A DNA stretch of 13,613 bases from an uncultured Elusimicrobia bacterium (GTDB lineage: Bacteria; Elusimicrobiota; Elusimicrobia; F11): NCBI GenBank assembly GCA_964499015.1, contig CAZCJA010000068.1:1-13613 (forward strand), in the 5' to 3' direction. Positions 1,335 through 13,209 of this stretch are shown here, piece after piece. Every line of letters begins with the position of its first letter. Position 1 is the stretch's first letter. The notes below the pieces were generated by a model. The model was given only the letters and a program-made list of their open reading frames with translations, did not search any database and was not told where the DNA came from. The translations under genes and the position numbers were made by a program.

Positions 1335-1363
1335 TTGAAAAACAGGCACTTCGGGCTTAAATA
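1335..1363 (+). promoter_or_regulatory. Candidate sigma70-type promoter for the TPR/FliG-like/MotAB operon
   Basis: TTGAAA (1335-1340), a 17-nt spacer, then TAAATA (1358-1363). It sits in the 88-bp divergent intergenic region between the oxidoreductase start (1309) and the TPR gene start (1398). Support is sequence match only. Confidence 0.35.
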
Positions 1364-1397
1364 AGTAGAGCACTTGAGGTTTCCAAGACGAGGGCTC

Positions 1398-2357
1398 ATG
1401 TCGAAGAAGTGGGACGTAAAAACATATCTATTTTTAAGCGCGTTTTTCCTCTTGGCCGCGCTTCCTCAATCCGTTTCCGCCTGGAGCTGGAATTCCGCGG
1501 ACAATGTTTTGCCCTCTCTCCGTGAGGAACTCGATAAAGAAATTGCCGCTTATCGCCTGCAAGTCGGCAATGGTATGAGCATGCAGGACCGCATCATTGC
1601 TTTGGACCGCCTCATCGGCAATTACCAGCCGCTCGGACTCAACATGGTGGAGCTGGAAACCGAACGCTCGCGACTGATGCTGCAGGAAAAACAACGCCAG
1701 CTCCGCTCCGCCGAACTGCAGACCGAAGCCACCCAGCTTTACGATCGCGGCGTCGCCGAATATCGCGAGGGCCAATACCGCGTTTCAATGGAAACCTTTC
1801 AAGAAGCTGAACGTCTTTTGCCGGACGACACCGGAATCAAGGAGCTGCGGCGCAAATTGCAGGGCATAGCGCCGATCACGGAATCGGAAACCGGTTCGAC
1901 CGGTGATTCCAAGCTGATCCGTTTATCCGTCACCCGCTATTTGGAAAACGACCCGAAGCGTTCGATGAACGCGCTCTTGTACGCCGGGGAGCGCTTCAAA
2001 GAGCGTCGTGAAATCGAACGTCTGCAGCAACTGTTGGAATCGAACCATCCCGAAGTCGAAGCGCCGCGTTTGGCCACCGGCATTAATCTGGTGGACCATA
2101 AACTCCAGCTTTCCCTGGAAGCGATTTACGAAGGCCGCTACTTAACCGCCATTTCCGAATGCACCGACGTTCTTGATCTCGAACCCAACAACGTGCTCGC
2201 GCTGACCCGTCTCGGTTCGGCGTATTTCGCCATGAACGAACAGAACAAGGCCCAGCAGGTTTGGACCAAAGCCCTGCAGCTCGATCCGAACAACGAAGTG
2301 TTGAGAAAGTTTTTGTATGGCCGCAAAGGAGCCTCCCGTGTTGAAAAGAACCCTTAA
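1398..2357 (+). CDS. Secreted (periplasmic) tetratricopeptide-repeat protein, 319 aa
   Basis: Starts at ATG 1398 (MSKKWDVKTYLFLSAFFLLAALPQSVSA|WSW), a classic Sec signal peptide with a VSA cleavage site. TPR-like helical repeats include YDRGVAEYREGQYRVSMETFQEAERLLPDD and LEAIYEGRYLTAISECTDVLDLEPNNVLALTRLGSAYFAMNEQNKAQQVWTKALQLDPNN. Its 3' end overlaps the next gene. Confidence 0.8.
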   Translation: MSKKWDVKTYLFLSAFFLLAALPQSVSAWSWNSADNVLPSLREELDKEIAAYRLQVGNGMSMQDRIIALDRLIGNYQPLGLNMVELETERSRLMLQEKQRQLRSAELQTEATQLYDRGVAEYREGQYRVSMETFQEAERLLPDDTGIKELRRKLQGIAPITESETGSTGDSKLIRLSVTRYLENDPKRSMNALLYAGERFKERREIERLQQLLESNHPEVEAPRLATGINLVDHKLQLSLEAIYEGRYLTAISECTDVLDLEPNNVLALTRLGSAYFAMNEQNKAQQVWTKALQLDPNNEVLRKFLYGRKGASRVEKNP

Positions 2358-4050
2358 AAGAACCGCGCTCCTCTTGCTGCTCGCCGTCGTCGGCGCAGCC
2401 GTGCTTTTCGCTGAGTCCTCCTGGGACAGTGAGCGGCTTAACCTTGAAACCAATATTCAAAAACGCGTCGAAGAGGCGTTGTCCAAAATAATCCCGGCGA
2501 ACCAGTTTGTGTTGGTCGTGAAAATCGAGCCGCTCGGACAGCAAATTGACGCCAAGGGAAACCCGGTCGAATCCGGCGATGGCTACTTCCTGCCCGGCGT
2601 TCCGGAGCGCCAGCGTTTCGATAACAATCTGAGCGCCAAAGACTTGGCCAGCGCGCTCAAGCCCGACTCGGCGCTTTTCAAGCGCTTCATTCGCCAGATT
2701 TCCGTCACTCTCGTCATCGATCAGGATATCTCCGAAGAAACCGTCGACAAAGTGCGCGAGCTCACCCGTCAAATGGTGGGCTTGGACCCGCAGCGCGGCG
2801 ATACCATCAACGTGCAGCGCACGGTGTTTCAGAAAGCGCCCATCGCGATCATCGACAATTCGAGCATCGCCCAACTGCAGAACAGCCTGAAAAATTACTG
2901 GGTTGTGATTTTATTGACGCTGATTCTTTTCTGCGTGGGCGTGTTCTTCCTTTTTATGTTCGGTCCGCTGCGTGGCTTTTTAAACCGCTTCGTCCAAGTG
3001 CTGCCGACGCTCAAGCCGCAGGAGAGCGAAGGCCAGTATCCGCGTATGGGCGGCGGCGAGATGCCGTACATGCCGTTCTTCCCCGGTTACGGAGCGCTTC
3101 CCGGCCCTCAGGCTGGCGGCAACGGTTCAAATTTCTCCGGTATGCTGCAGGTGGAAAACCCGAACAAAGTATCCCTGCCGTTCAGCTTCATCCGCGAAGA
3201 CAATTTGGGAAATCTCTCCATTCTTCTGTCGCGTGAAAACCCGGAGAAAGCCGCGGTGGTCCTCGGCTATTTGCCGTCCGAATGGATCAGCCGCGTGCTG
3301 ATGCGCATCGAGCCGGCGATGCAGACGGAAATCGCCCAACATTTGGCCACAACGCGACAGCTTTTGCCGGAACAGGTTGAAGATATTGAACAGGATTTGA
3401 AGCGCCGCTTGGATTATATGGTCGGCGGCCCCGATCGTTTGATTTCTATTTATGAATCGCTGGATTTGGACGCACAGAAGCGCATGGTGGACAGCTTAAA
3501 AGAGTCGCGTCCGGAAGTGGCCGATGAAATTCGTAAGCGCTCCCTTTTGTTCGAGGACTTGGAAAAATTGGACGCCGCCGGTCTTAAAACCATACTGCGC
3601 GAAGTGGATCTGCAAACGCTGGTGATGAGCCTGCACGGCACATCCAGCGCGTTCACCAAGAAGATTATGGATAACGTCTCGCCGGGCAAGGCCGAGATTA
3701 TTAAGGAAGAGCTCGAGACGCAGAAAGTGTTCCCGGGTACGCTGGTTATGGAAGCGCAGCGCAAAGTGGCGCTCATCGCGCGCCGTCTGCGTAAAGAAGG
3801 GCATATCAGCGTGCCGCTGGGCGCAACGGACGCGGCGCCGAGCGTCCGCTACGGCAGCGGTGGATCATTGCGCGACAGTCTGAAGCTGCCGCCCGCCCTT
3901 AAAGGAAACGCGCCGGAGACGGTCGTCGAAGGCGTCACCACCAAAAAGAATGAGCCGGGCAAAAATATCGAAGATCGCATTAAGAAATTTATGAAGCGCG
4001 GGGACAACGAAGAGCGCTATCCCCAAGACGACAATCAAACGGGAGCCTGA
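2338..4050 (+). CDS. Membrane-anchored FliF(C-terminal ring motif)/FliG(M+C domain) fusion-like protein, about 570 aa
   Basis: GTG at 2338 lies 6 nt after AAAGGAG (2325-2331); the in-frame ATG at 2317 is an alternative start. Residue numbers follow the 577-aa track ORF. TM1 is about aa 16-32. The periplasmic segment (aa 33-193) contains ISVTLVIDQDISEETVDKVRELTRQMVGLDPQRGDTINV, resembling the FliF block RLSVAVVV...IEDLTREAMGFSDKRGDTLNV. TM2 is YWVVILLTLILFCVGVFFLFMF, followed by a P/G/aromatic linker. From PFSFIRE (nt ~3172) to about 3816 there is a clear FliG_M + FliG_C: ENPEKAAVVLGYL (EHPQ motif region), MVGG, EIRKRSLLFEDLEKLD, ILREVD and RKVALIARRLRKEGHI. Confidence 0.8.
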   Translation: MLKRTLKRTALLLLLAVVGAAVLFAESSWDSERLNLETNIQKRVEEALSKIIPANQFVLVVKIEPLGQQIDAKGNPVESGDGYFLPGVPERQRFDNNLSAKDLASALKPDSALFKRFIRQISVTLVIDQDISEETVDKVRELTRQMVGLDPQRGDTINVQRTVFQKAPIAIIDNSSIAQLQNSLKNYWVVILLTLILFCVGVFFLFMFGPLRGFLNRFVQVLPTLKPQESEGQYPRMGGGEMPYMPFFPGYGALPGPQAGGNGSNFSGMLQVENPNKVSLPFSFIREDNLGNLSILLSRENPEKAAVVLGYLPSEWISRVLMRIEPAMQTEIAQHLATTRQLLPEQVEDIEQDLKRRLDYMVGGPDRLISIYESLDLDAQKRMVDSLKESRPEVADEIRKRSLLFEDLEKLDAAGLKTILREVDLQTLVMSLHGTSSAFTKKIMDNVSPGKAEIIKEELETQKVFPGTLVMEAQRKVALIARRLRKEGHISVPLGATDAAPSVRYGSGGSLRDSLKLPPALKGNAPETVVEGVTTKKNEPGKNIEDRIKKFMKRGDNEERYPQDDNQTGA

Positions 4051-4053
4051 TAA

Positions 4054-4842
4054 ATGGATTTCATGACATTGTTTGGTTGGCTGATCGGGCTCGGATCCAT
4101 CGGCTGGGTTTTGGCGGATGGGGAAATTTTTCGCTTCTTTTACAATACGCATGCGTTGGTTCTCGTGTTCGGCGGCACCCTCGGTTCCACACTGATCACC
4201 TATCCATGGTCGATCTTAAAACGGCTGCCGCACGCGATGCTCCTATTTATGTTCCCGGGCCGGCGCGAATCCTCCGAAACCGTGATGCAAAGCGTGCTGG
4301 CTCTGTCAGGCCGCGCGCGCCGCTCCGGCATGGAGAGCGTCGAAATCGACATGAACGGCGTGCAGAACCGTTTCCTCGCTAATGGGCTGCGCATGATCGC
4401 CGATGGATTGCCCGCCAATTTGATCCGCGCCAATCTGGAGAAAGAAATCCATTTTATCCGCCTACGTCACGCGGAAGTGGCGAATGTGTTTCGCAACATG
4501 GCTACGTACGCACCGATCTTCGGCCTGCTCGGAACGCTGGTCGGCGTCGTGCAAGTGCTGTTGAACCTGTCGGATCCGCGCACGATGGGCATGCACATGG
4601 CCGTCGCCATGACCGCGACCTTTTACGGCATCTTTGGCGCCAATTTTTTGTTTTTGCCCATCGCCGGCAAACTTCACGCGTATTCGGAACAGGAACTGTT
4701 TCTAAAAGAAGTGATGATCGAAGGGGTGCTGTCCATCCAACGGCAAGAAGTGCCGGCCATTCTTACGCGCCGTTTGCAGGCCTACTTGAATGAAGGCGGC
4801 AAAGCCTTGTCCACAGCGAGCGCGCGCGAAGCAAAAGCATGA
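4054..4842 (+). CDS. motA: MotA/PomA-family stator channel subunit, 262 aa
   Basis: ATG 4054 follows GGGAG (4041-4045). The N-terminus MDFMTLFGWLIGLGSIG...LVLVFGGTLGSTLITYP is MotA-like. Both conserved TM3/TM4 proline blocks are present: YAPIFGLLGTLVGVVQ and TATFYGIFGANFLFLPIAGKL. The C-terminal IEGVLSIQ...P block is MotA-like. A large cytoplasmic loop sits between TM2 and TM3. Confidence 0.9.
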   Translation: MDFMTLFGWLIGLGSIGWVLADGEIFRFFYNTHALVLVFGGTLGSTLITYPWSILKRLPHAMLLFMFPGRRESSETVMQSVLALSGRARRSGMESVEIDMNGVQNRFLANGLRMIADGLPANLIRANLEKEIHFIRLRHAEVANVFRNMATYAPIFGLLGTLVGVVQVLLNLSDPRTMGMHMAVAMTATFYGIFGANFLFLPIAGKLHAYSEQELFLKEVMIEGVLSIQRQEVPAILTRRLQAYLNEGGKALSTASAREAKA

Positions 4843-5501
4843 TCCACCGTCTTTTCCGCCGCAAGTCCGACGACAGCCGCGCCGAAGGCATCTGGCTCAC
4901 TGTTTATTCCGACCTGATGACCAATTTGGTGCTCGTTTTCTTGGCCATGTACGGCCTGGTCACGATGGGCAACAAAGCCATTGAAGAAGCGGCCGTTTCC
5001 ATGAAATCGCCCGGTTCGTCGATCAAGTCCATGGAAGATCAAACCCTTACTCTCGAAAGCGTCACGCTGTTGTTGCGCCAGGAATTCAAAGACAACAGCG
5101 AGGTGGCAATTCTCGAAGAAACGGGCGTGACGCGCATTCAATTGGGCGAAACCATTCTTTTCGATTCCGGCCGCGCGGAGCTAAAGCCATCGGCCAAGCC
5201 CATGCTGGAAAAAGCGGCGACGTTTCTTGTCCTGCTTCCCTATACCATCGTGGTTGAAGGCCACACCGACGACCGTCCTATTAGAGGCGGCGTTTATCGC
5301 GACAATTGGGAGCTGTCGTTGGGGCGTTCGATGTCGGTGGTCGATCTGTTGTCCAAACAAGGCGGGATTCCCGCCAAACAATTGGCGGCCGCGGCCTATG
5401 GCTTCAATCATCCGCGCGCCTCGAACATGACGCCCGACGGCCGCGCATTGAACCGCCGCGTTGAAATCGCGCTCTTCCGCGACGTCCCGTTTACATTATG
5501 A
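4839..5501 (+). CDS. motB: MotB-like stator subunit 1 (N-terminal TM with channel Asp plus OmpA-like peptidoglycan-binding domain), 220 aa
   Basis: Its ATG overlaps the motA stop (ATGA at 4839-4842). WLTVYSDLMTNLVLVFLAMYGLV carries the invariant Asp (GAC 4911-4913). The OmpA-like C-terminus reads GHTDDRPI...NWELSLGRSMSVVDLL...NRRVEIAL. Confidence 0.9.
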   Translation: MIHRLFRRKSDDSRAEGIWLTVYSDLMTNLVLVFLAMYGLVTMGNKAIEEAAVSMKSPGSSIKSMEDQTLTLESVTLLLRQEFKDNSEVAILEETGVTRIQLGETILFDSGRAELKPSAKPMLEKAATFLVLLPYTIVVEGHTDDRPIRGGVYRDNWELSLGRSMSVVDLLSKQGGIPAKQLAAAAYGFNHPRASNMTPDGRALNRRVEIALFRDVPFTL

Positions 5502-6259
5502 GCGACGAAGAGAATCTCGAAGAAGGCGGCGAGGGCGAAGCGGAAGAAATTTCGCTTCCGGAACTCGAAGAGCTTCCGGAGACCGACGCCGCTCAAGGGC
5601 AGGGCGCCGAAGAGGAAGAGGAGAAAAGTTGGTTCGGCGCCAACCGCCGCAAGCGCGCGCCGGTCGGCATGCACCGCGACGCAACGAACTTATGGCTGAT
5701 TTCGTATTCCGATTTTATGACGATTCTTTTCATTTTCTTCCTGGTCATGTATGGTTACGCGGTTCTTGAAAAGCAGCAGCGCATGTCGCAAGGCGCGACG
5801 ATTTCATACGACGCTTTCGCCAAGTTGATGGACCGATTTGAGGGCGTGGTGGGCAGCGCCAATGTGGAGATCACGACGGATTCCAACAAGACCACGGTGC
5901 AAATGAAAGACAGCGTGCTCTTTGCCAGTGGAAGCTCCGAGCTGACGCCAAACGCAAAAACGACTCTGGCGGAACTCTCCAAGTCCCTTAAACTGGTCGC
6001 AGGCGACGTGATTGTGGAAGGCCACACGGACAACGTGCCGATTTTTGGGGGCCGCTACAAGTCAAACTGGGAACTCTCGGCGGCTCGCGCTTTCTCCGTT
6101 ATTGAAGAGTTGACCGCCAACGGCGTGCCGGCGAAACGGCTGGCGGCCTGGGGATTCGGCGAGAACCGGCCGATCAGCAGCAACGTAGAAGAAACGGGCC
6201 GGCGCAACAATCGGCGCATTGAAGTGATAATCTTTAACGACAGAACGCACAACACCTAA
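5498..6259 (+). CDS. motB: MotB-like stator subunit 2 with a highly acidic N-terminal extension, 253 aa
   Basis: Its ATG overlaps the previous stop (ATGA at 5498-5501). The first ~43 aa are Glu/Asp-rich (MSDEENLEEGGEGEAEEISLPELEELPETD...EEEEEK). Then comes LWLISYSDFMTILFIFFLVMYGYAV with the conserved Asp (GAT 5711-5713). The OmpA-like C-terminus reads GHTDNVPI...NWELSAARAFSVIEEL...NRRIEVII. Confidence 0.9.
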   Translation: MSDEENLEEGGEGEAEEISLPELEELPETDAAQGQGAEEEEEKSWFGANRRKRAPVGMHRDATNLWLISYSDFMTILFIFFLVMYGYAVLEKQQRMSQGATISYDAFAKLMDRFEGVVGSANVEITTDSNKTTVQMKDSVLFASGSSELTPNAKTTLAELSKSLKLVAGDVIVEGHTDNVPIFGGRYKSNWELSAARAFSVIEELTANGVPAKRLAAWGFGENRPISSNVEETGRRNNRRIEVIIFNDRTHNT

Positions 6260-6268
6260 GGGGAACGA

Positions 6269-7285
6269 ATGTCCGGAGAACGCATACTGGTGATCGACGA
6301 CGACGAGCAGGTGGCGTCGTATGTTCGTTTGGCCTTTACGCTGAACGGCTATCAGGTTGAATGGATCAACGACGGGCGCAAGGCGTTTGATAAAGCCCAA
6401 CAGATGATTCCAGACGCCATTATTCTCGACCTTAAACTTCCCGGCACCAACGGTTTCCGTATTTGTGAACAACTTCGCTCCGAGCCGCGCACCCGCGCCA
6501 TCCCTATTATTGTCGTCAGCGGCAGCTGGAAAAACGCCCAGGACCGCATTCGTTCCATCGAAGTGGGCGCCGACGATTTTCTCACCAAACCGTTCGACGC
6601 GCAGGAGTTGATCGCGCGCATTAAGCGCATGCTCCAGCGCAAAAAAGTTGACATGGGGCACAACCCGCTGACGGGCTTGCCCGGCAACTTGGCGATCGAA
6701 GAAGAGTCGCGCCGCCGACTGGCAACGCGATCCAACCTCGCGTTCGCCTACATCGACCTGGACAATTTTAAGGCGTACAACGACGTCTACGGCATAAAGC
6801 AGGGTGATAAAGTCATCCGTCTTCTGGCCGACCTTTTGTTGGAGTCGGGCAAGCGGTGGGGAAATCCCAGCGACTTTATCGGCCACGTCGGCGGCGACGA
6901 CTTTGTGATGATGACCTCGCCGGACAAAGCCGAACAGATTTTTTCCTGGATCGCGCAGCGCTTCGACGAACGCATCAAAGCGTATTATTCGGAAGCCGAT
7001 TTGCGCGCGGGCTGCATCACCGCCAAAGACCGCCAGGGCAACATTAAGAAATTCAATTTCGTTTCCGTTTCCATCGTTTATCTCACTGATAAAAATATGG
7101 AAACCAATCAGTATGCGGTGTTAATCCAAACCCTCACCGAAATGAAGGGCTACGTGAAACACAACATGGACCGCACCAAAGGGGGAAGCGTCGTGTTTCA
7201 AGATCGCCGCGGCCCCGAAGCCGAAAACCCGCGCGTCAAGCCGGGCACCGCTCCCGCCAAGCCCGATACCACTCCCCTTAAATAG
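6269..7285 (+). CDS. Response regulator: CheY-like receiver plus GGDEF-family (diguanylate cyclase-like) domain with a non-canonical GGDDF site, 338 aa
   Basis: SD AAGGGGA lies upstream of ATG 6269. The REC domain has DDD (aa 10-12), phospho-acceptor D54 (IILDLKLPG) and TKPF. The GGDEF-like domain has NPLTGLPGN, FAYIDLDNFKAYNDVYGIKQGD and GHVGGDDF (GGDDF = nt 6890-6904). Confidence 0.9.
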   Translation: MSGERILVIDDDEQVASYVRLAFTLNGYQVEWINDGRKAFDKAQQMIPDAIILDLKLPGTNGFRICEQLRSEPRTRAIPIIVVSGSWKNAQDRIRSIEVGADDFLTKPFDAQELIARIKRMLQRKKVDMGHNPLTGLPGNLAIEEESRRRLATRSNLAFAYIDLDNFKAYNDVYGIKQGDKVIRLLADLLLESGKRWGNPSDFIGHVGGDDFVMMTSPDKAEQIFSWIAQRFDERIKAYYSEADLRAGCITAKDRQGNIKKFNFVSVSIVYLTDKNMETNQYAVLIQTLTEMKGYVKHNMDRTKGGSVVFQDRRGPEAENPRVKPGTAPAKPDTTPLK

Positions 7286-7334
7286 CCATTCTTTTCAGGT
7301 CGTTTAGGCGGTGTAAAAAGCTTAAATTGGTGTA

Positions 7335-7363
7335 TTGACGCTTCCGGATGCTTTTGTTATAAA
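7335..7363 (+). promoter_or_regulatory. Strong sigma70 stable-RNA-type promoter (extended -10, GC-rich discriminator) upstream of tRNA-Gly/tRNA-Thr/tuf
   Basis: TTGACG (7335-7340), a 17-nt spacer ending in TGT, then TATAAA (7358-7363), followed by GCGCCACC. This closely resembles the E. coli rrnB P1 -10/discriminator TATAATGCGCCACC (from memory). An A/T-rich UP-like stretch lies at about 7315-7328. Confidence 0.55.
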
Positions 7364-7412
7364 TGCGCCACCTCAATTGACCTTCGTTAAATCTAATTGC
7401 TGGTTTTGGTTA

Positions 7413-7443
7413 GACCCCGGGACGTTTCGGGGTCTTTTGTTTG
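7413..7443 (+). terminator. Rho-independent terminator-like hairpin with U-tract
   Basis: GACCCCG (7413-7419), an 8-nt loop, CGGGGTC (7428-7434), then TTTTGTTTG (7435-7443). It lies 128 nt after the REC-GGDEF stop and 15 nt before tRNA-Gly. Confidence 0.6.
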
Positions 7444-7458
7444 TAAGGGCGCCACGTC

Positions 7459-7529
7459 GCGGGTGTGGTTCAATGGTAGAATGCTAGCCTTCCAAGCTTG
7501 AGACGTGGGTTCGATTCCCATCACCCGCT
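7459..7529 (+). tRNA. tRNA-Gly (anticodon UCC)
   Basis: Manual cloverleaf, 71 nt, no encoded CCA. Acceptor GCGGGTG/CACCCGC; D arm GTTC-AATGGTA-GAAT; anticodon arm CTAGC-CTTCCAA-GCTTG (one U-U mismatch); T arm GTGGG-TTCGATT-CCCAT. Confidence 0.9.
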
Positions 7530-11027: not shown

Positions 11028-11558
11028 ATGTCCGAGACGCCAACTCCTCCAGTCGCTCCAGTCGCCGCCGCGTCTCCTTCCGTTCCGAATCCTGAACTTT
11101 CGCGCCGTTCTTTCCTCCTTTATGGATGGGGAGCGTTTATGGCGTTTCTCGCGGCGTCCGCGGGCGCTACGCTCCGTTTTTTCCTGCCGAACGTTCTCTA
11201 CGAACCGTCCCAAAAATTCCGCGCCGGAATTGCCCGCGATTATCCGCTTGGCGTGACAATTGATAAAGCGAACCGCGTATGGGTTGTCCGCAACGATCGC
11301 GGTTTGTACGCAATGTGGGCGCGCTGCACGCACTTGGGCTGCACGCCGAACTGGTTCCCGGCCGAAACTCGCTTTCGCTGCCCGTGCCACGGCTCCAACT
11401 TTACCGCTGCTGGCGATGTGATCGCCGGCCCTGCGCCAAAGCCTCTGTGGCGCGTGCAGGTCACACAAACTCCAGCGGGAGAGCTTGTCATTGATAAAGC
11501 CGTTATGGAGAATAGACCCGGACCGCGCGACAAAGAGCCGTTCTTTATCACGATTTAA
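11028..11558 (+). CDS. Rieske [2Fe-2S] subunit of a cytochrome bc/b6f-type complex, 176 aa, with a Tat-type signal anchor
   Basis: Cluster-binding boxes CTHLGC and CPCHGS are present. The N-terminal LSRRSFLLYGWGAFMAFLAASAGA has a twin-arginine motif and a hydrophobic anchor. A cytochrome b gene is adjacent. Confidence 0.9.
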   Translation: MSETPTPPVAPVAAASPSVPNPELSRRSFLLYGWGAFMAFLAASAGATLRFFLPNVLYEPSQKFRAGIARDYPLGVTIDKANRVWVVRNDRGLYAMWARCTHLGCTPNWFPAETRFRCPCHGSNFTAAGDVIAGPAPKPLWRVQVTQTPAGELVIDKAVMENRPGPRDKEPFFITI

Positions 11559-11565
11559 TTAACAC

Positions 11566-13209
11566 ATGCAATTACCCAAAATAAATCTCGAGAAGATTAA
11601 AGAAGACGTCATCAACAGCCAAGTGTGGCGTTCCATGTTCCGTGGCGGAACCTGGAAAGACACCTCCCGCGATCGCGCGCAGCACATCCTCGGCAACGTC
11701 TGGCTCCATTTGCATCCCGCCCGCGTCCGCTCACGCGCCGTCAAACCCAATTACACCTGGGGCTTGGGCGGTTTGTCGTTCCTGTTGTTCCTCGTTTTGA
11801 CCGTGACGGGCATCGTGCTCATGTTCTACTACCGCCCGTCGATCGATCTCGCCTATCGCGACATGAAAGATTTGGAATTCGTGGTTTCTTTCGGAAAATT
11901 CATGCGCAACATGCACCGCTGGTCGGCGCACGCAATGGTGCTCGTCGTTATTTTGCACATGGTGCGCGTGTTTCTCACCGGCTCGTACAAAACCCCGCGC
12001 GAATTCAACTGGGGCGTTGGTGTCGTTCTTCTCGTTCTAACTCTTTTCCTTTCTTTTACCGGCTATTTGCTGCCGTGGGACCAACTGGCAATTTGGGCGG
12101 TCACCGTCGGCACCAACATGGCGAGTGCCACTCCATTTCTTGGGGCGGAAGGCCCGTTCTCCTCATTATTGGGCGTCGGTCTTAAGAACGACGCGCGTTT
12201 TGGTTTGCTCGGCGGCACCTCCGTCGGCGCCAACACGCTGGTCCGTTTCTACGTTTTGCATTGCATCGCGGTCCCGTTCATCACGGGCGTGCTGATGATC
12301 GTGCACTTCTGGCGTATCCGCAAAGACGGTTTCTCCGCGGCCGCGCTGCCGAACGAAGGCCCGAACCAGAAGATCGAAGTATGGCCTAATTTGGTCGTGC
12401 GCGAATATATCGGTGCGATCCTGATGCTCATTTTCCTCGTGGCATGGTCGATTTTGCAGAACGCGCCGCTCGAAGGCATCGCCGACCCCAACGTCACGCC
12501 CAACCCGTCCAAGGCGCCGTGGTATTTCTTGGGCTTGCAGGAACTGCTCGTCTATTTTGATCCGTGGATCGCGGGCGTGCTGCTGCCCGGTATTATCGTC
12601 GGTGGTTTGATCGCGATTCCGTATCTCGAACCCGATCCAAATCACGGCGTCGGTTACTACTCGGTCAAAGACCGCCCATTCGCTTCCGCCATTTTCTTGT
12701 TTGGTATCGCCGCGTGGTTTGTGCTTATCATTGTCGGCGTTTTTTTCCGTGGGCCCAACTGGGCCTGGTACTGGCCGTGGGAAAACTGGGCGTATCACAA
12801 GCCGCCGGATCCACCCACGTTTACGCTTCCGCTCGCATTGGGCGGCGCGCTCATCACTCTTTATTTTGCCGTCGGCATGGTGTTGCCGCGCTTGATCACC
12901 AAAATCATCGACATTAAAGCGGCCATCTGGCGGACGTTGATTATTTCAATCGGCGTGTCCGCGATTGTCGGCGCATTGCCGATGTTCAGCTTCGTGCAGG
13001 GCATATGGGCGGGGTTCGGCCTGTTCCTGTATGTGGTGCTCGGGTTCTTCCTGCCGCAAAAATATTTGAAAGGCATTTCGATCATCCGTTACACGGTTTG
13101 CATGCTGCTGCTCCTTTTGATGATCAGTGTATTCCTGAAAATGGCGCTGCGTCTTGGATTTAACGTGAAGTATATCGTCTCGATTCCACAAGTGAGTTTG
13201 AATATCTAA
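11566..13209 (+). CDS. Cytochrome b (fused b6-like N-terminal plus subunit-IV-like part, with extra C-terminal TM helices), 547 aa
   Basis: Helix B has [15 protein letters not shown] (H-X13-H) and helix D has [16 protein letters not shown] (H-X14-H, b6-like spacing). The Qo-loop motif region reads [13 protein letters not shown] count about 11 hydrophobic helices by eye. Confidence 0.92.

Follow-up and report, generated by a model that had tools for sequence, protein, structure and literature searches.

The 13,613-nt stretch of DNA analysed here (the window; contig CAZCJA010000068.1 of GenBank assembly GCA_964499015.1, from an uncultured Elusimicrobia bacterium) carries six tightly packed open reading frames (ORFs), all co-directional on the plus strand and together spanning 1374/1398-7285. 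Their products are a predicted secreted tetratricopeptide repeat (TPR) protein, a fusion of FliF- and FliG-type rotor domains, the stator protein MotA, two MotB paralogs and a response regulator (Table 1). No further flagellar gene (FliM/FliN, FlhA/B, FliPQR, FliI, rod, hook or filament) lies in the window, and we consider it probable that the operon encodes an ion-driven rotor-stator module that works outside any flagellum. An initial annotation had listed the same six genes and their junctions, and both are borne out. Pfam assigned every domain that it had named (all Pfam calls quoted here for the window's proteins exceed their gathering cut-offs), and the junctions agree on the sequence provided that GTG 2338 is taken as the start of the fusion. 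The Shine-Dalgarno sequence of this codon is the better one (AAGGAG, 6 nt upstream), and the resulting overlap with the TPR gene is 20 nt; with a start at ATG 2317 this overlap would be 41 nt. MotA follows the fusion after 3 nt and the regulator follows MotB2 after 9 nt, and ATGA overlaps join MotA to MotB1 (4839-4842) and MotB1 to MotB2 (5498-5501).

Table 1. Features of the operon, in window positions (pLDDT, predicted local distance difference test score; A1, alignment of fusion homologs)
Feature	Position	Strand	Remarks
Candidate sigma-70-like promoter	1335-1363	+	TTGAAA-17 nt-TAAATA, read by eye; weak
TPR protein ORF	1374-2357	+	TTG 1374 start; ATG 1398 likelier, with GAGGG Shine-Dalgarno
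FliF::FliG_MC fusion ("rotor" protein)	2317-4050	+	577 aa from ATG 2317, 570 aa from GTG 2338; Pfam, PDB sequence match, AlphaFold2, Foldseek
N-terminal hydrophobic helix, signal peptide or transmembrane helix 1	2341-2409 (residues 9-31)	+	AlphaFold2 helix 9-31; hydropathy segment 12-37
Periplasmic ring-building domain	2422-2826 (residues 36-170)	+	AlphaFold2 secondary structure; FliF RBM3-like, shortened collar
Transmembrane helix 2 and juxtamembrane motif FLFxFGPLRGFL	2881-2982 (residues 189-222)	+	Hydropathy; AlphaFold2 helix 182-215
Disordered Pro/Gly-rich cytoplasmic linker	3013-3171 (residues 233-285)	+	pLDDT <50 at 230-281; poorly conserved in A1
FliG middle domain (FliG_M)	3181-3423 (residues 289-369)	+	Pfam; residue-level alignment to 1lkv; column counts
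FliG C-terminal domain (FliG_C)	3490-3810 (residues 392-498)	+	Pfam; alignment to T. maritima "SKRAAALLKDELE"
Torque helix in FliG_C	3682-3720 (residues 456-468)	+	K458, E464, E465, E467
C-terminal tail with LKLPPGLK motif and basic helix IxxRIKRFMxR	3811-4047	+	A1; AlphaFold2 helix 552-560, tail otherwise disordered
MotA	4054-4842	+	262 aa; MotA_ExbB 83 bits
MotB1	4839-5501	+	220 aa; MotB_plug 31.7 bits, OmpA 62.6 bits
MotB2	5498-6259	+	253 aa; MotB_plug 42.3 bits, OmpA 74.2 bits
REC-GGDEF-like response regulator	6269-7285	+	338 aa; Response_reg 97.1 bits, GGDEF 54.9 bits
Intrinsic terminator	7412-7443	+	10-bp GC-rich stem at 7412-7435, 4-nt loop, T-run; terminator scan and sequence reading

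Anatomy of the rotor fusion, its stator and their partners

Two sources gave the layout of the fusion, alignment A1 with its 36 homologs and a model built by AlphaFold2 (pLDDT 69), and Pfam recognized FliG_C (87.7 bits, 7.8e-25), FliG_M (44.5 bits, 1.9e-11) and YscJ_FliF_C (29.3 bits) in it. The N-terminal hydrophobic helix shows an A-x-S-like site in the alignment, and the periplasmic domain behind it has the topology alpha-beta, a disordered insert with an invariant LPGVP, and beta-alpha-beta (model and alignment). When the model of the N-terminal 272 residues was compared with the PDB using Foldseek, each of the top 18 matches was a FliF MS-ring/RBM3 entry (E 2e-6 to 2e-4). A profile built from distant members of the family, over their N-terminal regions, matched Salmonella FliF at E 9.7e-12 over two collinear segments, residues 241-290 and 405-505, that flank the beta-collar; SpoIIIAG (E 1e-4) was matched as well, and a genuine Cellulosimicrobium FliF was matched by profile at E 3.8e-6. 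Sequence and fold both identify the periplasmic domain as truly homologous to the RBM3/S-ring part of FliF, which builds rings. This domain is also all that the fusion has of an MS-ring protein, with its RBM1, RBM2 and RBM3: the periplasmic part is just ~135 residues long, RBM3/collar-like, and gave no match to PF01514 (YscJ_FliF, RBM1/2).

On the cytoplasmic side, the juxtamembrane residues L212, F213, F215, G216, P217 and R219 are invariant in the alignment, and the Pro/Gly-rich linker stands in for the joint between the FliF C-tail and FliG_N. The C-terminal half matches FliG_MC of T. maritima at E 4e-34 by sequence (PDB search) and at E 1e-11 by fold (Foldseek). Within it, the FliM-binding EHPQ motif has become ENPE in the window's fusion and ETPE in the family, and the torque helix keeps G457, K458 and E465 invariant in the 36 homologs, with its acidic cluster retained in 109 distant domains. 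FliG_N reached 23.0 against a Pfam cut-off of 25, through a match that falls on the M domain (residues 308-364), and the N-M-C architecture of a flagellar FliG, with FliG_N bound to the FliF C-terminus, is not found. The FliF-motif/FliG fusion of the initial annotation is a real chimera, made of an RBM3/S-ring part, FliG_M and FliG_C, and lacking FliG_N and RBM1/2. Its basic tail helix (nt 3970-3996, residues 552-560) and the acidic N-terminus of MotB2 (nt 5498-5650, residues 1-50) are possible electrostatic partners.

The stator genes had been read as MotA and two MotB paralogs, and the residues that matter for such a role are retained in all three. MotA matches solved flagellar MotA/PomA chains over its full length (E 1e-46 to 1e-37; best 9lu9, E 1.5e-46), and it has four transmembrane (TM) helices and a cytoplasmic torque-generating interface with the conserved Arg and Glu. 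The charges in question are R89/R90 and E97 in ARRSGMESVE, a stretch conserved in orthologs as RARRxxMESxE, and they correspond to R90 and E98 in E. coli (for the roles of these residues, see PMC12505986); by its sequence, MotA is a flagellar-type stator A subunit. MotB1 has a TM helix with the channel Asp25 (YSDLMT, conserved in orthologs), a plug and an OmpA-like peptidoglycan-binding domain. MotB2, aligned to the MotB of 6ysf (PDB), begins with an acidic extension of ~50 aa and goes on with a TM helix bearing Asp72 (YSDFMT), a plug and an OmpA-like domain, so that both paralogs show the single TM helix with an ion-binding Asp, the plug and the OmpA-like domain of a MotB. They are 37% identical to each other, and both types are met again in other lineages with the gene order unchanged, the B1-type being conserved across the type I loci and MotB2 grouping with the second MotB of other loci, which would fit either a heterodimeric axle or two kinds of stator. 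In some lineages one MotB paralog has lost the channel Asp, which is Gly in locus L012 (15680-16306) and Asn in locus L017 (13195-13965), both among the distant loci described below, a hint that the B subunit may be heterodimeric or serve structure only.

The TPR protein (319 aa from ATG 1398, 327 aa from TTG 1374; TPR_2 49.6 bits in Pfam) is predicted to be secreted, with a signal peptide that ends VSA-WSW and an A-WSW site conserved across nine aligned orthologs. It aligns solely to the C-terminal ~200 aa of larger proteins (515-614 aa; BLASTP E 1e-28 to 1e-42) encoded at the distant loci, in which a PorV/PorQ-type barrel precedes the TPRs. The window's TPR protein is a homolog of the C-terminal TPR half of these barrel-TPR proteins; since it aligns with that half only, the barrel is absent from the window's clade. 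A PorV/PorQ-family outer-membrane barrel was indeed not found in the window (NCBIfam scan and BLASTP of the TPR protein), nor was any cargo protein with a type A (TIGR04183) or type B (TIGR04131) C-terminal sorting domain of a type IX secretion system (T9SS).

The regulator, which the initial annotation called REC-GGDEF-like, does have both domains in Pfam; its second motif, however, reads GGDDF and not GGDEF. The REC domain is complete, with D10-D12, the phospho-acceptor D54 and the KPF lysine present and conserved. GGDDF occupies residues 208-212 (nt 6890-6904) and is invariant in all 7 sequences, in place of the active-site motif (G/A/S)G(D/E)E(F/Y), and alignment to PleD puts NPSD where the RxxD inhibitory I-site would lie, five residues before the motif. 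The GGDEF match covers Pfam profile positions 3-103 of 161, the guanine-binding Asn/Asp is retained, and the best PDB matches are PleD (E 6e-42) and DgcR. One GGDDF enzyme is reported as active and another as inactive (PMC8835794); because a GGDDF enzyme can be active, catalysis by this regulator is possible.

Boundaries, flanks and relatives of the operon

The hairpin terminator that the initial annotation placed behind the operon was recovered by the terminator scan, with the stem at 7412-7435 followed by TTTTGTTTGT, 127 nt 3' of the regulator stop codon and 16 nt 5' of tRNA-Gly (7459-7529). That the hairpin is part of a tRNA is ruled out, since the tRNAs begin only at 7459. The proposed promoter fared less well: the box falls within the intergenic stretch (1310-1397) that separates the TPR gene from the divergently oriented ADH gene, and the consensus promoter scan of the window did not call it. 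The flanks are ordinary metabolism and a tuf/ribosomal string, as had been described, with an icd fragment and the ADH gene upstream and, downstream, tRNA-Gly, tRNA-Thr, tuf, tRNA-Trp, nusG, rplK, rplA, and genes for a Rieske protein and cytochrome b; an Rfam scan of the window returned the three tRNAs and nothing else.

Two features of the downstream flank are recorded here in their own right. A good promoter-like box at 7335-7363 (TTGACG, 17 nt, TATAAA) lies 5' of the hairpin, tRNA-Gly, tRNA-Thr and tuf; this order of promoter, hairpin and tRNA is odd, and it could represent a leader or attenuator, or the hairpin could be shared by both units. Directly after rplK-rplA, at 11028-13209, stand two genes, one for an iron-sulfur protein of the Rieske type and one for a long cytochrome b (547 aa), an order kept in two other Elusimicrobia metagenome-assembled genomes (MAGs; L005 18682-20794 and L009 18743-20862). 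The usual genes after rplK-rplA are rplJ-rplL-rpoB.

About 56 proteins of about 550-590 aa share at least 50% identity with the fusion and come from Elusimicrobia/Elusimicrobiota MAGs where named; the next-best match is a canonical FliG at 33% identity. A genome-collection scan with the single fusion sequence as query gave no confirmed relative, and the same scan with alignment A1 as query recovered ten loci, all from species-level Elusimicrobia MAGs, including fen_1177 and Ca. Obscuribacterium magneticum DUR003. To the limits of their contigs, all ten show the same gene order: icd, ADH (on the opposite strand), TPR, fusion, MotA, MotB1, MotB2, regulator, tuf, nusG, rplK, rplA; six extend through the regulator gene and four stop sooner at a contig edge. 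MotA is 71-80% identical to that of the window over its full length (61% in L006, from a truncated match of 96 aa), the regulator 73-80% across its 6 orthologs and the fusion 51-60%, which makes MotA and the regulator the two best conserved proteins of the operon. With the same flanks in all ten loci, the block lies between housekeeping genes and never beside flagellar operons. The operon is conserved and, by these sequence comparisons, under selection.

Across 19 related loci we found no other flagellar gene but flbD, which is present in L012, L013 and L016. Published surveys agree: Elusimicrobiota are described as being without flagellar machinery (PMC11257099), a clear absence of flagellar genes is reported for Elusimicrobia (PMC7031533), and DUR003 and most free-living members are said to be without flagellar structural genes (bioRxiv 10.1101/2022.07.08.499144). 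The last of these had already noted homologs of motAB, flbD and fliG in non-flagellated Elusimicrobiota, and called their role "enigmatic".

An exhaustive HMMER search with a profile of the N-terminal, non-FliG half of the fusion alone reached much further, to 431 representatives of 50%-identity clusters at E<1e-3 and 108 at E<1e-10. Among the matches listed of at least 400 aa, 110 of 114 also have a FliG_MC-like C-terminus (local hmmsearch with a FliG_MC profile), and the named family members are all Elusimicrobiota except for one oddly binned contig (Thermoprotei). Word-indexed homolog searches with alignments of distant members (A4, A3) added hardly anything new, and no carrier in culture.

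Eight distant loci (L011, L012/13, L014-L018 and L020), whose fusions are 17-32% identical to that of the window, were read. MotA and one or two MotBs accompany the fusion in seven of them (L014 has none among its called genes). The gene directly upstream of the fusion encodes a PorV/PorQ-like barrel with C-terminal TPRs in seven as well: the NCBIfam model PorV_fam scored 116-136 bits, against a cut-off of 90, in L011, L012, L014 and L016, and 81 and 67 bits in L015 and L018, and L020 gave a weak Pfam UPF0164 match only. The exception is L017, whose upstream gene had no family match. T9SS-type sorting-domain proteins, some of them giant, lie near the fusion in six of the eight. The giant ORFs stand just upstream of the PorV-TPR gene and the fusion and measure 16,931 aa (L011 1-8090), 14,454 aa (L012 1-7823) and at least 8,833 aa (L016 1-8208). 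Those of L011 and L016 end in type A sorting domains (24.4 and 27.3 bits, cut-off 23), that of L012 has a C-terminus that matches just the C-terminal ends of the PorU and PorZ models, and L018 has a type B sorting-domain protein (36.5 bits, cut-off 35). PorP/SprF-like and extra PorV-like barrels and CHU_C-tailed proteins are further neighbors.

Signalling genes are also found at these loci. The operon has a histidine kinase or response regulator beside it in L014, L015 and L018, L011 contains a PilZ protein, and in L020 (8001-10511) the rotor protein carries a HisKA and HATPase_c histidine kinase fused at its N-terminal end (836 aa in total); because this kinase precedes the first hydrophobic helix, the helix must be a true TM segment there. 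One subtype (type II) has a coiled-coil-rich protein of 800-1,091 aa after the fusion (L011 13288-15762, L012 11938-14340, L014 13138-15630, L016 11955-15230). It directly precedes flbD-motA-motB in L012 and L016, is absent from the window's clade, and gave no family match beyond coiled-coil noise. A different arrangement was met in L019, where a called 637-aa gene (2759-4672) combines a full FliF (RBM1-3) with FliG_M and stands in a genuine flagellar operon (flgC-fliE-fliF). Either this is a full-length FliF-FliG fusion of natural origin, or a frameshift accounts for it; it is distinct from the mini-FliF fusion studied here. The family as a whole is wide, with a constant core of a TPR or PorV-TPR gene, the fusion and MotAB.

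Proposed mechanism and rival explanations

We think that the operon is best read as a non-flagellar, ion-driven rotor-stator module with output to the outer envelope and with control by a two-component system and a cyclic dinucleotide, and we hold this reading to be probable. The direct evidence covers gene content, homologies, conserved key residues, synteny and distribution; we infer ring assembly, rotation, contact with the TPR protein and the output, the first three from homology. The OmpA domains of MotB1 and MotB2 would anchor MotA5B2-type units to peptidoglycan, ion passage at the conserved MotB Asp would turn the MotA pentamer, and the charged MotA loop (R89/R90, E97) would push on the torque helix of FliG_C (K458, E464/E465/E467). 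FliG_C, FliG_M, the flexible linker, the TM helix and the RBM3/S-ring-like domain would then move as one polypeptide assembled into a membrane ring; with all the rotor domains on one polypeptide, such a ring would be self-sufficient, needing no FliF-FliG_N joint, C-ring or export gate. The secreted TPR protein probably contacts the periplasmic face of the ring, and the regulator would link the module to two-component input, either by cyclic-dinucleotide synthesis or by direct action on the rotor. The output is most likely directed to the outer envelope, in the placing, holding or moving of surface proteins (a secretion, adhesion or gliding-type process), because in relatives the TPR module is the C-terminal half of a PorV/PorQ barrel at loci with sorting-domain proteins. 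This output is the weakest step of the reading. The flagellum-independent device that the initial annotation had proposed, with a rotor element, stator, peptidoglycan anchors, TPR partner and regulator, thus finds support in the homologies, the key residues, the synteny and the reports of flagella-free carriers, and the comparison of gene neighborhoods that it had called for found the block conserved, apart from flagellar operons, in the ten MAG loci.

Several points weigh against this reading. MotA scores 181 bits against an NCBIfam equivalog cut-off of 340, MotB is also below its cut-off and FliG scores under the equivalog cut-off too. The basic residue of the torque helix (K458) is not conserved in the distant family, and both ring formation by the fusion and its turning are predictions. 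The absence of flagellar genes in carriers is literature-based, the named MAG DUR003 is 75.8% complete, and a few Elusimicrobiota genomes do have full flagellar sets (10.1101/2022.07.08.499144). Finally, the TPR protein of the window's clade has no PorV-like barrel and its locus no sorting-domain cargo, so the envelope output is borrowed from the distant relatives, at the low fusion identity given above.

A device that does no external work, and instead informs a two-component/cyclic-dinucleotide pathway about load, the state of the envelope or contact with a surface, is unlikely, though it is the rival that we take most seriously. Flagellar motors serve as tactile sensors in Caulobacter. In the operon, the REC-GGDDF regulator comes last and shares with MotA the highest conservation, and the kinase fused to the rotor in L020, the kinase or response regulator genes flanking L014, L015 and L018 and the PilZ protein of L011 all fit mechanosensory signalling, as does the potential catalytic activity of GGDDF domains (PMC8835794). 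Across the family, however, the type of regulator varies (REC-GGDDF, MerR-REC or none), whereas the core of TPR/PorV protein, rotor and stator is constant, which looks like regulation of a machine rather than its purpose, and the recurring outer-membrane barrels and sorting-domain proteins suggest a mechanical or secretory output.

Less credible again is a non-rotating force transducer of the Ton/Tol type, in which no ring forms and MotA tugs on single copies of the fusion, the pull passing from FliG_C by way of the TM helix to the periplasmic domain and onward to the TPR protein. Other 5:2 motors do use single elongated partners, namely TonB, TolA and GldM (PMC12204202; review PMC9389320), the periplasmic domain of the fusion is small, and its AlphaFold2 monomer is moderately confident (pLDDT 65-69). 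Yet the homology of that domain is specifically to FliF's RBM3/S-ring, which forms rings, and to the ring builder SpoIIIAG, around the flagellar rotor it is FliG_M and FliG_C that polymerise, and the model of the fusion has no proline-rich or long helical periplasmic shaft like those of TonB or TolA.

That the fusion is the ordinary rotor, or a second rotor, of a flagellated organism whose other flagellar genes lie elsewhere is very improbable. Its parts are true homologs of FliF, FliG, MotA and MotB, the L019 gene is called as a full-length FliF-FliG_M fusion within a real flagellar operon, and there are the few complete flagellar sets mentioned above. Against this, the fusion lacks RBM1/RBM2, which house the export gate, and FliG_N, and has an altered FliM-binding motif; flbD is the sole other flagellar gene in the 19 related loci; and, according to three papers, flagellar machinery is missing from the phylum or from carriers. 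The initial annotation would have given up its proposal had this been the only FliF/FliG of a genome with an otherwise complete, scattered flagellar gene set, or had the block occurred only in flagellated relatives beside other flagellar operons; what we find is housekeeping flanks in all ten loci, and the published surveys describe a phylum without flagellar machinery. A decaying, functionless relic of a lost flagellum is hardly believable: leftover genes are conceivable in a phylum without flagella (PMC11257099), but the six ORFs are intact with overlapping stop and start codons, the MotB Asp, MotA charges, FliG torque helix and REC Asp are all retained, and the order is kept in ten species-level MAGs and the architecture in hundreds of 50%-identity clusters.

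Novelty, meaning and comparison with known systems

Beyond the KEGG-level remark of the 2022 preprint, we found no description in the literature of the fusion, the operon or the PorV-TPR link, and a preprint on giant genes mentions neither MotA nor FliG. The initial annotation's view that no such system had been described holds for the fusion and the operon, but not for the homologs of motAB, flbD and fliG, which had already been noted (10.1101/2022.07.08.499144). The results suggest a flagellar-type rotor-stator repurposed as a stand-alone module. A wider idea is tentative and, on balance, doubtful to us: a phylum-wide, undescribed, envelope-spanning rotary machine in which an RBM3/FliG ring and MotAB, coupled through TPRs to the handling or moving of T9SS-type sorting-domain proteins (the adhesin-like giants included), would take the role of GldLM/PorLM in secretion and gliding of Bacteroidota. 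The TPR module would on this view descend from the periplasmic tail of a PorV/PorQ-like outer-membrane barrel. We are similarly reserved about calling the system a categorically new envelope machine.

To our knowledge, FliG-based torque reception is known from the flagellum alone, and all other 5:2 ion motors use unrelated partners. If the wider idea is true, a FliG-type rotor would for the first time be seen in use away from the flagellum, and the system would be a living model of a minimal rotor; if the module stands alone, the motor core would work freely without C-ring, export gate or axial structures, as a natural minimal torque system of one rotor protein and one stator. This would bear on the origin of the flagellar motor from simpler machines, or its decay into them. 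The PorV-like barrels and giant T9SS-type proteins of relatives point to a possible new way of powering outer-membrane and surface processes, and the "enigmatic" motAB and fliG of magnetotactic, supposedly non-swimming Elusimicrobiota may thereby gain a function.

The closest known system is the flagellar motor core (FliF MS-ring, FliG and MotA5B2). The operon shares with it the RBM3/S-ring domain, FliG_M, FliG_C with its charged torque helix, the Arg and Glu of the MotA loop, the channel Asp, plug and OmpA domain of MotB and, in some relatives, flbD beside motA. It differs in that one polypeptide replaces FliF and FliG, without RBM1/2 and FliG_N and with an altered FliM-binding motif, in that no C-ring, export, rod, hook or filament genes lie nearby (nor, according to the literature, in the phylum), and in its partners, which are TPR/PorV-like proteins and a response regulator. 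Full-length FliF-FliG fusions (the Salmonella/Vibrio constructs of PDB 8z4d/8z4g, and L019) likewise join FliF to FliG covalently at 1:1, and the S-ring region of an engineered fusion was solved as 34- and 35-fold rings (PDB entry titles). Whereas these contain all of FliF and FliG (945 aa) and work within a flagellum, the operon's fusion has 570-577 aa and only RBM3, TM2, FliG_M and FliG_C.

The T9SS and gliding motor GldLM (PorLM) of Bacteroidota resembles the distant loci only, where a 5:2-type ion motor also stands near PorV/PorQ barrels, sorting-domain proteins and giant adhesin-like proteins. In place of GldL5M2 and its periplasmic GldM shaft, the motor here combines MotAB with a rotor of the FliG/FliF type, the phylum is not part of the FCB group, and the window locus has neither barrel nor cargo. 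ExbBD-TonB, TolQR-TolA, AglRQS-Glt, ZorAB and SiiAB likewise have a stator-like unit, driven by ions, that powers an envelope process by way of a partner dedicated to it, but none of them uses FliG/FliF domains, and the A subunits of other 5:2 motors are without the flagellar torque-generating interface that the operon's MotA keeps (PMC12505986). The regulator, for its part, has the REC domain with phospho-acceptor Asp, helical linker, GGDEF fold and guanine-binding Asn/Asp of PleD, WspR and Leptospira DgcR, and differs from them in reading GGDDF, in having lost RxxD (NPSD) and in matching just the first 103 of 161 Pfam positions.

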